A DNA stretch of 64,000 nucleotides from Planctomycetota bacterium (GTDB lineage: Bacteria > Planctomycetota > UBA1135 > UBA2386). Below, piece after piece: positions 10,967 through 17,151 of the stretch. Under the pieces are notes generated by a model, which did not search any database, had not been told where the DNA came from, and was given only the letters and a program-made list of their open reading frames with translations. Positions within the stretch are counted from its first letter, which is position 1; each line of letters begins with the position of its first letter. The DNA lies in contig OZ245006.1 of assembly GCA_965223545.1 (NCBI GenBank), positions 4,576,001 through 4,640,000 of the forward strand, read 5' to 3'. Position numbers and translations under genes: made by a program.

Positions 10967-11608
10967 CTACCGTGGCGGTGGCGCGAACGCCTTGCGCGCG
11001 CGCTCGACGCGCCGTCGCGTACCGCAGCCGGGGACGTGGTCGTTGACCAGGCCCATCGCCTGCATGAACGCGTACGCCGTGGTCGGCCCGACGAAGGTCC
11101 AGCCGCGGCGCTTGAGGTCGGCGGCGAGCCGTCGGGCGTCATCGGTGGTCGCCACCACGCCGCGGTATCGCCGCGCCGGCTCGAAGCCCCAAAAGTAGCG
11201 CGCCAGGCTGCCGTGCTCGTCGATCAGCTCGAGTGCGCGGCGCGCGTTGTTGATCGTCGATTCGATCTTGCCGCGGTGGCGCACGATGCCGGCATCGCGC
11301 AGGAGCCGGTCGACGCTGCGCTGGTTGAAGCGGGAGACCGCGGCCGGATCGAAGCCGCGGAACGCTCGTCGGAACGCGTCGCGCTTGCGCAGGATGGTCA
11401 GCCAGCTCAGGCCGGACTGAAACCCCTCCAGGCAGATCTTCTCGAACAGGCGCCGGTCGTCGTCGACGGGGAAGCCCCACTCCTCGTCGTGATAGGTGAC
11501 GTAGTCCTCCGCGGTGCCGCACCACCAGCAACGGACCGCGCCGTCGGCCGCGGTGCGCAGCCGCTCGGCGGTGGCATCGGGGTCGGGTTGGGGCTCCGGG
11601 TCGTTCAC
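10967..11608 (-). CDS. tag: DNA-3-methyladenine glycosylase I
   Basis: RCWW, YHDEEWG, LEGFQSGLSWLTIL, FVGPTT.YAFMQAMGLVNDH; GTG start overlaps the upstream stop (GTGA). Confidence 0.95.
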   Translation of the reverse strand: MNDPEPQPDPDATAERLRTAADGAVRCWWCGTAEDYVTYHDEEWGFPVDDDRRLFEKICLEGFQSGLSWLTILRKRDAFRRAFRGFDPAAVSRFNQRSVDRLLRDAGIVRHRGKIESTINNARRALELIDEHGSLARYFWGFEPARRYRGVVATTDDARRLAADLKRRGWTFVGPTTAYAFMQAMGLVNDHVPGCGTRRRVERARKAFAPPPR

Positions 11609-12690
11609 CGGTCGCCGCGCTGCGAGTCGTCGGTGTCCTGCGCGTGGCGCCGCTTCGCCATGACGCCGCTCGCGATCTCCCACGCCTCGCGCAGGTCGCG
11701 GTCGACGAGATTGGGCCAGTCGGCATCCGGCGCCGCGCGCAGCTCCGCGGCCCAGGCGCGCTGTTGTGGCGACAGCACCGCGTCCACGTCGCCGCCGCGG
11801 CGCAGACGGGCGTTGACGCGCACGGCCTGCGCCTGCGTCAGCGGCAGCGCCCGCAACGGCGAGTGGAACAGCCCGTACTTGGGCTCACCGTCCGCGCGCA
11901 GGCCGCCGGGCGACGGTTTGGCGAGCGCGCCGACTGCGGCGGCAGCCGCGGTCTGTTGGGCGTCGGTCGTGGTGTAGATGTGCTGCGCGCATTCCTTGTT
12001 CACCGCCGTGCGCAGCAGGTCGGCGAACGACAGGCGGCGCGGATCGAACTGCACCTCGACGACTTCGTGTCCTTCGAGGAACGCCGCCCGGGTCGCCACC
12101 ACTCCGTCGAGGAGGCCGAACTCGGCCTCGCCGACCCAGAATCAACCCATGCCGAAGATCGCGGTCTCCACGCCGCGCGCGTGGCTGGCTTCTTCGCTGG
12201 CGAGCAGTCGCAGCCAGCCCGGCGCGCTGTCGCCGAGACCGGCCACCATTCCCGCGGCCAGCGCTGCGGTGGTCCAGGCATTGGCGATGCGCGGCACCAG
12301 GTCGGTGCGGTCGGCGGCGACGATGCGCACCACCGGGTTGTTCCAGGCGCGCTCCTCGAACGCGCGCCGCACCGCGTCATCGGCGTCGCCTTCGGTGTTG
12401 TTGTAGACGCAGACCGGAGTGAACAAGGTCTCGGCCGCCTCGACGATCAGGGGGTGGCTCAGCACGTGAGTCCCGTAGTCGACGCAGGTCTTTCAACCGG
12501 GGACCTCTTGGAACAGCACCAGCAGCGGGCGGTCGTGGGCCTTGGCGTCCGCCGTGGCGGCGTCGAAGTCGCGGAACCACGACACCGCGCCGAGCTCGGC
12601 CGGCTGGGCGGCTCGGTTGGTGCGCTCTTGGGCCGCGGCCGCGCCGATCAGCGCGGCGCCGATCGCGACGGTGGCAGTGGCAGTGTGCAT
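11605..12690 (-). CDS. Predicted exported selenoprotein with two Sec: thioredoxin-like UxxC domain (VPGUxxT-type family) plus MsrA-like domain, 361 aa
   Basis: ORFs 12493-12690, 12142-12465 and 11605-12102 share one frame, separated only by TGA at 12493-12495 (FQEVPG-TGA-KTC) and 12142-12144 (IFGMG-TGA-FWVGE); signal peptide; downstream hairpins. Confidence 0.88.
12106..12135 (-). promoter_or_regulatory. SECIS-like hairpin after the second UGA
   Basis: Minus strand GTCG-GC-GAGGCCG-AGTT-CGGCCTC-CT-CGAC begins 6 nt after the UGA; G at second loop position. Confidence 0.7.
12452..12474 (-). promoter_or_regulatory. Candidate SECIS-like hairpin after the first UGA
   Basis: Minus strand GGG-A-CTCA-CGTGC-TGAG-CCA-CCC begins about 18 nt after the UGA; weaker stem. 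Confidence 0.45.
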
Positions 12691-12757: not shown

Positions 12758-13960
12758 TCAGAAGGCGAAGGCCAGCTGGACGACGGCGCCCCAGGTGTCG
12801 TTGCCGGCGGTCATGCCGGTGATGTCGATGTAGAGCAGCTCGAGCGGCGAGAAGCCGAGACCCGCCGTGTACAGATCATCGAGGCCGTCCTCGAAGTCGT
12901 GGCTGTAGCCGCCGCGCAGCTGGAGGAAGTCGCCGAAATCGAGCTCGGCGCCGATGCGGAACGACTGCGTGGTGTCGGCGAGCTCGAAGCGCTCGATGTC
13001 GACGACGTCGATGTCGGCGGCGATCGTCAGCAGATCGGTGGCGAACGCGACCCCCGCCGTCACGCGGGGATGCACGTGGTAGGTGAACGCGTTGCCGTTG
13101 GTGGTGACCGTGCGGTATTCCTCCTCGATCAGGTTCCGTCCGGCGATGCCGAGCGTGAGCTGGGGGATCGGGCTGAACGCGGCACCCAGATCGAGGTTGA
13201 AGCCGAGGTCGTCGTTGCGGAACTGGTCGTCGTCGAACTCTTCGTTCTCGAAGGTGTCGACGTTGACCGAGTAGTTGAACGTGTCCACCCGCTGCAGCTT
13301 GGGGGTGACTCCGATCGACAGGCTCGGTCCGCCGAAATCGACTTCGTGCGCGAACGCCAGGCCGACGTCGGTCAGCGCGGCGGCGAGCACGACGCCTTCG
13401 GATTGGATGTTGTCGAGGTCGCCGGGGTTGGTGGCGGTGGCGATGCGCACCAGATCGCCGGGGTCGACATTGACGAACGCCTGGCCGTCGATCTGGCTCG
13501 CCACGAACAGCGAGATGGACAGTGCTTCCGAGGGAAACGTCAGTGCGAAGCCGCCGCCCGCGCTCGAGTGCGCGGTCCGGCCGCCGAGCGACTGCAGCTG
13601 TGCCGCCAGGGACAGCAGCTCGGCCGGGGTCGCCGTGCCGCCGGCGTTGAGCCGGTCTTGCAGGTCCGTCAGCGACGCTTGAAAGTCGTCGATCGCGTCG
13701 ATCAGTCCATCGCGGTCGTCGACCAGCGCGCCCAGGGTCGGCAGGGCGATGCCGAACGCGGTTTCCCCATCGGCGCGGGTGATCAGCGCGGGGTTGGTCA
13801 TCGCCGCGGTGATCCAGCGGGTCGACGCGACGCCGGCGCCGCCCATGGCGCGGTTGCGCGCCTCGAACGGCTGGGCTGCTGCGGCGGCGCTGAGGAGCGT
13901 GGCCAGCAGCGCGGCGGCGGGTCCGGAGTGGGGGGGAACGGGGGAGAGTGGGGTTCGCAC
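12758..13960 (-). CDS. TraF_2-like outer-membrane beta-barrel protein
   Basis: AAGGAGG RBS; signal peptide; ARNRAMGGAGVAS...NPAL; GVTPKLQR; amphipathic strands; terminal Phe (QLAFAF). Confidence 0.8.
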   Translation of the reverse strand: MRTPLSPVPPHSGPAAALLATLLSAAAAAQPFEARNRAMGGAGVASTRWITAAMTNPALITRADGETAFGIALPTLGALVDDRDGLIDAIDDFQASLTDLQDRLNAGGTATPAELLSLAAQLQSLGGRTAHSSAGGGFALTFPSEALSISLFVASQIDGQAFVNVDPGDLVRIATATNPGDLDNIQSEGVVLAAALTDVGLAFAHEVDFGGPSLSIGVTPKLQRVDTFNYSVNVDTFENEEFDDDQFRNDDLGFNLDLGAAFSPIPQLTLGIAGRNLIEEEYRTVTTNGNAFTYHVHPRVTAGVAFATDLLTIAADIDVVDIERFELADTTQSFRIGAELDFGDFLQLRGGYSHDFEDGLDDLYTAGLGFSPLELLYIDITGMTAGNDTWGAVVQLAFAF

Positions 13961-14140
13961 GGCGACGGGCACCTCCTTTGTGTCCTGTTCCCTGTTTCGG
14001 CCGGAATCGCCCTTGGCATGAGGTGTTGGCTCGCTTCCGGGGCCGGAACCCCCCGCGCGGGGGGTGCTCGAGGGGCAGCCGGGCGCCCGATCCACGGTTG
14101 CGGCGGTCACCCGGGCATCGCTCTAGACTAGATCTCCTCG

Positions 14141-16594
14141 ATGCGCCCCGAACGCTACGCCCGGGTTCGCCGGCTGTTCCACGCCGCCCGCGAGCTGGAG
14201 CCCTCCGAACGAATGGTCTTCCTGGCGCAGGCGTGTGCAGATGCGCCCTCGGTGCAGGCGGAGGTCGAGGACTACCTGGGCGCGGAGAACGAGCGCTCGG
14301 GTCTGACCACGTGGACGCCGCAGCGGATGGCCGCAGCGGTCGACGCCGGCGCGGCGCCGGCCGATTCGGTGATCGGCGCCCTGCAGATGCGCACGGGCTG
14401 GACGCTGGAGGTGCGGCTGCGTCCGCCGGAGAAAGAGGCGCCGGCGCGGGCGGAGCTCGAGGCGCCGAGCCGTCGTTACGAACTGACCGGTGAGATCGCC
14501 GCCGGCGGGGTCGGGGTCGTCTACCGCGGCCGCGACCGCGATCTCGGTCGCGAGGTCGCGATCAAGGTGCTGCGGCCCAAGCTGCGCGACGATCCGTCGA
14601 TGGTGCAGCGCTTCGTCCAGGAGGCGCAGATCTGCGGCCAGCTGCAGCACCCGGGCATCGTCGCCGTGCACGAGCTCGGCCTGCGCGCCGACGGCGTGCC
14701 GTTCTTGGCGATGAAGCTGATCCAGGGCCAGACGTTGGCGGAGCGATTGCGCGAGCGCCGCGCCGGGTCCGGCGAGCTCGGTCGGTTGCTGCTGATCTTC
14801 GACCAGGTCTGCCAAGCGGTCGCCTACGCGCACGCGCGCGGAGTCGTGCACCGCGATCTCAAGCCATCCAACGTGATGCTGGGCGCGTTCGGTGAGGTGC
14901 AGGTCGTCGATTGGGGGCTCGCCAAGGTGCTGGGAGAGCGGTCGAGCGTCGGCGCTCCCGAGGTCACCACGGTCACCGACGCCGGCGGCGGGGTCTCGGT
15001 GGTCGGCGCCGCCCTCGGGACGCCGGCCTACATGGCTCCCGAGCAGGCGCGTGGCATGCAGGAGGACGTCGATGAGCGCGCCGACGTGTTCGCCTTGGGG
15101 GCGATGCTGTGCGAGATTCTCACCGGCGCGCCGCCACACGACGGCGAGGCCGGTGGCGTCAGCGTCGACCAGGCGGCGCGCGCGGACCTGCGACCGGCAT
15201 ACCGGCGGCTGCGGGAGTGCGCGGCCGAGCCGGCTCTGCAACGGCTGGCGATCCGCTGCTTGGCCGTCGAGCGCGACCGCCGGCCGCGCTCCGCCGAGCG
15301 CGTCGCCGCCGCCATGGCGCAGTATCTGGTCGCCGTCGAAACGCGGGCGCGCAAGGCCCGAGTGCGGGCGGCCGCGGCCAAGCAGAAGGCCGCGCAGGAG
15401 CGCATCGCCCGCGACCGCGAGGTGAAATCGATGGCGTCGGTCGCCGCCCGCGTGCGGGCGGTCGGCGAACGGCGCGCCGCGCGGTTGCGCACCGCGATCA
15501 TCACCCTCGTCGCGGTGATGATCGGCGCCGGAGTGCCGCTCGGGGTCGCCTGGCAGGCGCGCGAGCGCGCCCTGACCGGCGGCGCTCGGCTCGAGTTCGA
15601 GCTGGCGCTGCGCCAGGCGGAGCGGTTGGCCGATGCCGAGGCGAGCGAGGCGCGCTTGACCGAAGCACAGACGACTCTCGTGCGGGCGACCCGCCTGGCC
15701 GGGCTGCCGATCGGCATCGCCGAGGACCAGGTGGCGCATGCCGAGCAGCTACTCGCCGATGTGCGCGTTCGCCGCGCGGAGCTGGTCGCGGCCGCGGCCC
15801 GCCAGCGAGAGGTCACCGCGCTGCGGCGCGGCCTCGACCTGCTCTGGGTACCCGACACCGTGATCGCGGGCGCCGAGCAGTGGTCGGTGGAGCGCGCCCG
15901 CGAGTTGGACCTGGCCTACGTCGATCGGTTTCGGCGCCACGAGATCGCGGTCGACCACCGACGTGCTGCCGACGTCGTGGCGCGCTTGGGTGGCGTCGCC
16001 GACTCCGCCATGGCGGCGCACTTCGCGGCGTGGGCGCGCCTGCGCCGCCGCGCCCTCGAGGCCGACCGCGGGCCGCCGACCGGAGATCCCGTGCACCTGC
16101 TCGAGATCGCGTCCGCGCTCGAGGCCGACGCCGCGTGTCGCGACTTGATGCGGTTGTTGGTCGCCTCCGGCGGGCGCCCCGAGGCGTTGTCGGCTTGGCT
16201 GGAGCGACGCGGCGTCGACCGCTTGCCGCCGGCGTCGGCGTGGTTGGTGAGCGCGTGGTGCGATGAGCGCGGTGATCTCGCGCTGGCGACGGAGGTGGCG
16301 GCGGCGGCCTGCCGCCGCGCGCCGGGCGATCTCGCGTGTCTGTTGCGGCTCGGCCTGGCAGCCGAACGGAGCGGCGTCGCGGGCGCACCGCAGGCGCTGT
16401 CGGCGTGGAGTGCGGCGGCGGCGTTGGTGCCCGAAGATCCGGGCGTGCGCCTGCGGCTCGCCGCCAGTCTCGCAAGGGTGGGACAACAGGAGGCTGCCGT
16501 CCGCACCTTGGACGCGCTGCTGGAGTGGCGTCCGCGCGATGCCGCTGCGCTGCGGTTGCGGCGGTCGTGGTCGGAGCCGGAGGCCGAGAAATGA
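14141..16594 (+). CDS. Membrane Ser/Thr kinase with C-terminal TPR-like helices
   Basis: [42 protein letters not shown]; one TM segment. Confidence 0.93.
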
Positions 16595-17151
16595 CCGAGG
16601 TCCCCACCAGCGACCCCATGGATCTGGCGGCGCGCCTGCGCGCGCGGCCCGACGCAGCGGACGAGTTGGTCCCCCAGCTGTACGAGCAGCTGCGTCGGGT
16701 GGCGGCGAGCCGGCTGCGGCGCGCCGATCACGCGGTCGGCCTGCACCCCACCGAGCTGGTGCACGAGGCGTACCTGCGCATGGCCGACCAGAGCGGGTTG
16801 GACGCGGCGGCGCGCTCGCGGTTCTTCGCGGTCTCGGCGCAGGTGATCCGCAACGTCTTGGTCGATGCCGCGCGGCGTCGCGGTGCCGCCAAGCGCGGCG
16901 GTGGCATCGCCGACGTGCCGCTGGGCGAGGACGAGCCGCACCCCGGCCGCGCGCCGATCGACGTGTTGGCCTTGGATGAGGCGCTGGCGCGCCTGGCGGC
17001 GTTGGACGCGCGGCAAGCGCAGGTGGTCGAGCTGCGCTTCTTCGGCGGGCTGACCTGCGAGGAGGTCGCCGAGGTGCTGGGCCTGTCGCGACGCACCGTG
17101 CAAGCGGATTGGAGCATGGCGCGCACCTGGCTGCGCCGCGCGCTGGAGTAG
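16591..17151 (+). CDS. ECF sigma factor, planctomycete kinase-associated type (TIGR02999-like)
   Basis: [53 protein letters not shown] overlap with the kinase. Confidence 0.92.

Follow-up and report, generated by a model that had tools for sequence, protein, structure and literature searches.

The locus described here raises the question of how a cell would read a gene that two in-frame TGA codons appear to break in three and, if both codons are read as selenocysteine (Sec), what a protein with Sec at two active sites would do. It lies in a 64,000-nucleotide stretch of a Planctomycetota genome (contig OZ245006.1, positions 4,576,001 to 4,640,000), which in its entirety is the window to which our coordinates refer. 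A first-pass annotation had joined three open reading frames into one 361-codon frame with only two TGAs. Retranslation reproduces that frame and places it on the minus strand, a detail absent from the earlier description. It starts with an ATG at 12690 and ends with a TGA at 11607-11605, and its only two internal stops are both TGA, at codon 66 (12495-12493, context LFQEVPG-TGA-KTC) and codon 183 (12144-12142, context AIFGMG-TGA-FWVGE). The same annotation had predicted that standard pipelines would split the gene in three, and they do: NCBI and ENA list three separately called proteins for it, of 65, 107 and 165 aa. The features that the argument needs are these.

11605..12690, minus strand: whole coding sequence, an NF041383 VPGUxxT type 2 selenoprotein with two Sec (361 codons and a terminal TGA)
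12631..12690, minus strand: probable Sec-pathway signal peptide, residues 1-20 (TVAIGAALIGAAAA), from a hydrophobicity heuristic and a low-pLDDT N-terminus; cleavage site presumed
12232..12588, minus strand: thioredoxin-fold domain, residues 35-153, DsbD-gamma/DsbH-like, with U66-K-T-C69 and a WNNP loop (Pfam PF13899; fold match)
12493..12495, minus strand: TGA for Sec66, first position of UxxC (Cys in homologues; TGA in 38/172 loci)
12452..12474, minus strand: SECIS-like hairpin 1, which is imperfect here (4/6 core pairs by our count)
11773..12174, minus strand: residues 173-306, an MsrA-derived domain without loops L1 and L2 and part of a helical domain of the C. oremlandii type (VIA, Foldseek, HMM alignment)
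12142..12144, minus strand: TGA for Sec183, the MsrA catalytic Cys/Sec position, GUFW (Cys in homologues, HMM alignment; TGA in 27/172 loci)
12112..12129, minus strand: SECIS-like hairpin 2, a 7-bp stem whose AGTT loop begins 20 nt after the UGA
12064..12066, minus strand: Glu209, equivalent of Glu55, the C. oremlandii MsrA proton donor (HMM alignment; Glu in 402/404; role from the available text of PMC4479559)
11989..11991, minus strand: Cys234, aligned at the MsrA active-site Tyr90, a candidate resolving Cys (HMM alignment; Cys in 299/404)

The most prosaic explanation is that the gene is a pseudogene with two nonsense mutations, a product of assembly error, or a gene whose TGAs another code reads as Cys or Trp. 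Against an error, a contig of depth 511 spans 11450-12649, including both TGA sites, with zero differences; its source is probably the same study as the assembly and hence not independent, so that it argues only against assembly error. The runs X5 and X6, which stem from other studies, reach neither TGA. Against another code, TGA is the ordinary terminal stop of this very gene, as judged from its overlap (GTGA) with a GTG that shares the reading frame of the downstream DNA-3-methyladenine glycosylase I gene, and from the lack of a hairpin behind it (best stem 2 bp). The glycosylase gene (10967-11608, minus strand) probably starts at this GTG, and its pairing with the selenoprotein does not recur among the top neighbor clusters of 101 loci. 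Upstream on the same strand (12758-14110) lies a gene for a TraF_2 (PF13729) outer-membrane beta-barrel-like protein, followed on the plus strand (14141-17151) by a Ser/Thr kinase with a TPR tail and, after it, an ORF that by eye resembles an ECF sigma factor.

The first-pass annotation had proposed looking for the Sec machinery in the genome and aligning the TGA=U translation to homologues, and both results favor recoding. The host genome encodes SelA (464 bits), SelB (318 bits) and SelD (346 bits), each above its cut-off, together with a tRNA-Sec (anticodon TCA). Its selD carries one in-frame TGA itself; it directly follows selA (L010 / L001, G000:C1:1264004-1266329, minus strand), and SelD is a selenoprotein (GG-U-AAK). 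A protein search that scored 8000 candidates found 854 relatives, and in 120/120 of the homologues listed both TGA columns hold Cys. In a pooled alignment of 420 sequences, of which 404 cover both sites, Cys or Sec occupies site 1 in 397/404 and site 2 in 402/404.

The TGA pair is also shared. From 190 loci fetched, 183 were parsed (7 were not) and 11 duplicates were dropped, leaving 172 distinct loci in a sample biased to relatives of the query. Sites 1 and 2 are TGA/TGA in 27 of these, TGA/Cys in 11, Cys/Cys in 134 and Cys/TGA in none, and no other stop falls between the two sites. The earlier judgment that two nonsense mutations would be unlikely thus holds: the identical pair in 27/172 loci, with no further stop, speaks against a pseudogene or another code. 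So does the presence of selA in 26/27 other TGA-carrying genomes, although the exception, the one-TGA genome G246 (84% complete), has no selA match and on its face favors these explanations. Co-occurrence of selA was rejected as a discriminator between TGA and Cys forms, as 11/12 phylum genomes with a no-TGA match have selA too.

Further evidence comes from the RNA itself. The bacterial SECIS is a hairpin just 3' of the UGA with a G early in its loop. Behind site 2, a 7-bp stem begins 13 nt past the UGA and carries an AGTT or GGTT loop across genes. It is fully paired in 24/27 TGA genes vs 0/145 Cys genes, a comparison without a synonymous control, as no Cys gene encodes the same peptide. Among 17 genes, 97.5% of its cells are paired, with two-sided (compensatory) changes in 3/7 pairs; the covariation score is reached by 0/500 shuffles, and slid controls pair in 28-58%. 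Such a stem in that register follows 114 of the 135,848 TGA triplets of the host genome. The site-1 hairpin is 82.5% paired across 26 TGA genes, with a two-sided change in 6/9 pairs, and is fully paired in 20/38 TGA genes vs 0/134 Cys genes, again without a synonymous control. The hairpin is therefore clear at site 2, and at site 1 is clear across the family yet imperfect in this gene; both registers were picked by inspecting these sequences, and kin share sequence. Folding of the 95-96 nt stretches after the UGAs as single sequences was unremarkable (z 0.53 and -1.71). Four one-Sec genes (L019, L020, L035, L041) carry the site-1 hairpin in a different register, which suggests that SECIS elements arose or shifted separately. 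A genome-wide motif and hairpin scan for further selenoproteins in the host returned mostly noise.

Complete machinery, Cys columns and SECIS-like hairpins with compensatory pairs thus support the original proposal of Sec at both sites, and on this strong comparative evidence we consider it very probable that both UGAs are recoded as Sec to give a full 361-aa product. Covarying hairpins behind the TGAs are hard to reconcile with a pseudogene or another code, and although readthrough is argued here from comparison of genes, we regard explanations of that kind, assembly error included, as scarcely credible.

How widely is the second Sec distributed? Among 401 genomes of the phylum there are 40 over-cut-off matches, 18 with two TGAs (host included), 10 with one and 12 with none. 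The named relatives are Planctomycetota, and none of 21 family matches from 120 genomes of another phylum (that of G401) carries a TGA. A quick IQ-TREE phylogeny of 101 rows places 17 two-Sec genes in a single 19-row branch (SH-aLRT 98) together with two one-Sec genes, and on a FastTree phylogeny of 404 rows the second Sec needs 3 changes. The two-Sec genes are therefore not independent cases, and these trees make one or a few origins of the second Sec probable. The one-Sec genes within the branch, L021 and L029, have Cys at site 2 and lack Cys234 but have a Cys six residues later; a reversion from Sec is likely. The His or Tyr that precedes the catalytic residue in 131/145 forms with Cys at site 2 is found in 0/27 two-Sec forms, although its loss (position 182) and the second Sec form only 2 independent pairs on the tree. 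In the two-Sec group, the peptide downstream of Sec is nearly fixed around the hairpin. Another family member, L230 (G435:C12:30015-30860), has one in-frame TAG.

The family itself is already catalogued. With TGA read as U, the protein matches the NF041383 profile at 364.9 bits (cut-off 275) over model positions 1-286 of 287, and its VPG-U motif (LFQEVPGUKTC) lies in a thioredoxin-like domain that scores above the gathering score of PF13899. NF041383, the VPGUxxT family thioredoxin-like (seleno)protein type 2, shares the VPGU motif and its model already spans both domains, but the motif here is UxxC, unlike the catalogued VPGUxxT type. In its available text, a 2026 review lists NF041383 as hypothetical protein OS_HP5 with motif VPGU and 1 Sec and assigns it no function (PMC13188914), whereas here there is a second Sec at an MsrA-type site with its own hairpin; a 2022 review, as far as available, lists OS_HP5 without a domain or motif (PMC9312934). 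The 2026 review counts differing Sec positions as separate subfamilies and describes proteins with 2-3 Sec as a small subset. The bacterial double selenoproteins that it catalogues, namely the NF041212 HUGP/GUXX-star fusion, NF047649, NF041536, MduS and TsoB, likewise have two Sec per protein, often one per fused domain, but judged by name, none of those in the available text is a thioredoxin-MsrA fusion (PMC13188914).

The second Sec and the MsrA-like half find no mention in the available portions of the literature searched, which included bioRxiv 10.1101/2022.07.06.499078 and PMC1976440 (the main text of the latter also lacks the term 'OS_HP5'), though the NCBIfam comment or BSepDB may record them. 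Terms for the NF041383 family are likewise absent from the main text of PMC13326102, from its supplement as searched and from the available text of PMC12013277. Since the family is catalogued, what we add is limited to the second Sec and the MsrA reading, and the two-Sec variant of that family is real. The VPGU thioredoxin domain also occurs with a long helical tail (L205, G310:C5; L206, G280:C21) and with a helical domain without the MsrA core (L207, G372:C249). In L209, L210 and L211 a C-terminal thioredoxin-like domain with EHPG-U-xxC or ENPG-U-xxC follows an N-terminal domain, and these are probable further selenoproteins.

What kind of protein would the full frame encode? The AlphaFold2 model is confident (pLDDT 93.6, pTM 0.89) except at its N-terminus, where pLDDT is low. 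In that model the thioredoxin domain, residues 35-153, matches DsbD-gamma/DsbH-like folds best (3F9U: Z 15.3, rmsd 1.9, 116 aligned; DsbH: Z 14.1). The best fold match of residues 173-306 is the 1-Sec MsrA of Clostridium (Alkaliphilus) oremlandii (4LWJ, 4U66), across both its catalytic and helical domains (VIA against 4LWJ residues 6-188: Z 15.3, rmsd 2.2, 133 aligned), and Foldseek ranks 1-10 are all MsrA-type entries (best E 8.7e-7). HMM alignment, Foldseek and VIA therefore agree with the fusion of a UxxC thioredoxin to an MsrA-derived domain that had been read from the sequence. Neither the Pfam search nor the structural matches of the model include an MsrB. The signal peptide claimed at the same time is probable by our hydrophobicity heuristic (2.29 for the query; at least 1.8 in 112/118 homologues), with the presumed cleavage site a matter of that heuristic as well.

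The MsrA-like half is only partly an MsrA. The active site of the C. oremlandii enzyme comprises GCFWG, Tyr47, Glu55, Gln89, Tyr90, His137 and Tyr140 (PMC4333827, available text). Here, Sec183, Phe184 and Trp185 stand for its Cys/Sec16, Phe17 and Trp18, Glu209 for Glu55, and Tyr272 (in 330/404) for Tyr140, the last by motif alignment. In the HMM alignment, however, the Tyr47 loop (L1) is deleted, the Gln89/Tyr90 loop (L2) is deleted with Cys234 in place of Tyr90, and the counterpart of His137 is absent. The corresponding motifs are nearly gone family-wide (P[TSN]Y in 1/404, QY.[SA] in 6/404, HQ.[YF] in 1/404). The TIGR00401 msrA profile gives 27.5 bits vs a cut-off of 108.1, and PF01625 gives 29.9 bits (gathering score 23.7) while covering just positions 1-33 of 153. 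Having lost the Tyr47 and Gln89/Tyr90 loops and His137, the domain does not have a full MsrA active site, and in view of this partial site we call it MsrA-derived rather than filing it as an MsrA. The proposal of an MsrA-like repair enzyme accordingly stands for the fold, GUFW and Glu209, and falls short at Tyr47, Gln89/Tyr90 and His137.

The first-pass annotation had also likened the protein to Neisseria PilB, an envelope fusion of a thioredoxin-like N-terminal domain with MsrA and MsrB that is recharged by DsbD (PMC6210582, available text). The concept of a thioredoxin-Msr fusion survives, but the analogy is loose: PilB has an MsrB and complete Cys MsrA motifs, whereas this protein has no MsrB, and in PilB the reduction by the N-terminal domain is intermolecular for MsrA and intramolecular for MsrB alone (PMC6210582). 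By analogy, the closer model is the C. oremlandii Sec-MsrA with glutaredoxin. According to the available text of PMC4479559, that enzyme lacks a resolving Cys and does not accept thioredoxin as reductant; it is recycled by glutaredoxin attack on the oxidized catalytic residue, and its loops L1 and L2 shift aside as another thiol approaches. The protein described here differs in a fused reductant-like domain, a predicted signal peptide and the Cys at the Tyr90 position. The fused thioredoxin-fold domain would fill the glutaredoxin-type recycling role, and the fusion together with the loss of L1 and L2 fits a reductant kept permanently beside the active site. Where a homologue has no more than two Cys, they stand precisely at positions 66 and 183.

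Couplings between alignment columns give a hint of the same arrangement. We ran a mean-field DCA, which suffers from limited depth (Meff about 344, 316 columns) and from confounding by kinship among the sequences. Plausible within-domain contacts come out on top, and of the 80 highest-ranking pairs 7 are interdomain. Three of these link residues 84 and 87 with 307 and 309, and four link Q61, C69, V76 and R122 with D267, C234, F184 and M181 near Sec183. Three pairs lie by both active sites (Q61-D267, C69-C234 and V76-F184), with C69-C234 at rank 34 of 48,516. These couplings are suggestive of domain-domain contact near the active sites. A complex prediction with isolated domains of the Cys homologue P0007 scored 0.01 against a mark of 0.32 and weighs neither way.

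Starting from the observed frame, machinery, family, fold, residue conservation and SECIS covariation, we propose tentatively, with a probability of roughly 0.45, that the protein is an exported selenol relay that reduces an oxidized envelope substrate, most likely methionine sulfoxide. On one mRNA, the two UGAs would be read through by SelB and tRNA-Sec, each with its own downstream SECIS hairpin, yielding a 361-aa double selenoprotein that would be exported as a self-contained redox relay. Sec183, aided by the invariant Glu209, would attack the oxidized substrate, most likely peptidyl methionine-S-sulfoxide. Oxidized Sec183 would then be reduced within the same chain by Sec66 of the fused thioredoxin domain, either directly or via Cys234. 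The bond would pass to Cys69, and the UxxC would be recharged by a DsbD-family membrane protein. A DsbD-family gene is present elsewhere in the host genome and could be the electron source, as for PilB. PF01794, which we take to be the MsrQ-type domain, was not found in that genome (91% complete).

Genomic context bears on the substrate in both directions. A canonical msrA is adjacent in 5/101 loci, all Saprospiraceae, which counts for a link to Met repair; no neighbors are common beyond close kin in a neighborhood clustering of these 101 loci. Counting against a plain MsrA function, on the other hand, the host genome encodes a pair of complete MsrAs whose N-termini are signal-like, one being a Sec form. 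The Sec form (L044, G000:C1:4196541-4196948, plus strand; GUFW) has a full active site and a helical domain of the C. oremlandii type (4U66, E 3e-48); a GTT loop caps its 8-bp hairpin. The other (L043, G000:C1:3108788-3109237, minus strand) is a canonical Cys MsrA whose N-terminus is lipoprotein-signal-like by eye.

The losses in the active site weigh on the methionine sulfoxide step in particular, since Tyr47 and Tyr90 are two of the three residues that bind the sulfoxide oxygen, and His137 is gone with them. It is a real possibility, though short of even odds, that the MsrA fold has been repurposed, with L1 and L2 gone, the thioredoxin domain packed against it, and residues 66 and 183 (with Cys69 and Cys234) forming a composite site for another substrate, such as a protein disulfide, a sulfenic acid, a peroxide or a small S- or N-oxide. 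Such repurposing would account for the family-wide loss of Tyr47, Tyr90 and His137, the replacement of Tyr90 by Cys234, the interdomain couplings and the retention of two complete MsrAs in the same genome, as well as for a set of near-invariant residues without an MsrA counterpart (E62, N97, E113, W116, N118, E188, Q288, N293, Q310). It sits less well with Glu209, Phe184, Trp185 and Y272, which are central to sulfoxide catalysis and methyl binding and are strongly kept, or with the msrA adjacency in one Saprospiraceae group. The most specific form of this idea, in which the two Sec, 117 residues apart, form a composite site that runs an Se-Se relay in one extracytoplasmic chain on a substrate other than methionine sulfoxide, we find doubtful.

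Conserved Cys and Sec residues could also serve as ligands, with U66, C69, U183 and C234 converging in a protein that binds or detoxifies a metal, a metalloid or selenium. Four such residues are conserved, 0/275 rows lack C69 yet have C234, and the DCA rank of C69-C234 is high enough to invite this interpretation. In the 404-row set, however, 6 rows lack C69 yet have C234, both are missing in 44/404, and no metal-resistance genes recur as neighbors among the 101 loci. Co-evolution of C69 and C234, striking as raw co-loss, was rejected on the tree (5 independent pairs, median p 1), where the pair test gives the coupling no support. We consider a ligand role improbable.

Very unlikely, in our view, is an arrangement in which the thioredoxin domain serves other proteins in trans and the MsrA-like half acts as a scaffold for docking, its Sec being vestigial or regulatory. 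The VPGU domain does have other C-terminal partners, once with the MsrA core deleted (L205-L207), and the PilB domain does reduce MsrA between molecules (PMC6210582, available text). But a scaffold would hardly keep Cys or Sec at residue 183 and Glu at 209, each in 402/404, nor would one clade be expected to evolve and keep a dedicated SECIS for position 183.

The exported selenol relay thus remains our preferred, if tentative, reading, and the locus matters beyond the choice of substrate. It corrects a gene that pipelines break in three and adds a two-Sec subfamily absent from the available text of the 2026 inventory (PMC13188914). The composite two-Sec site, should it exist and act on another substrate, would mean a new kind of chemistry for the MsrA fold. 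The proposal gives an uncharacterized family a testable, putative function. Finally, the natural series of Cys/Cys, Sec/Cys and Sec/Sec forms lets one ask what Sec contributes to the individual steps of a relay, and also informs how a SECIS is built within coding sequence.
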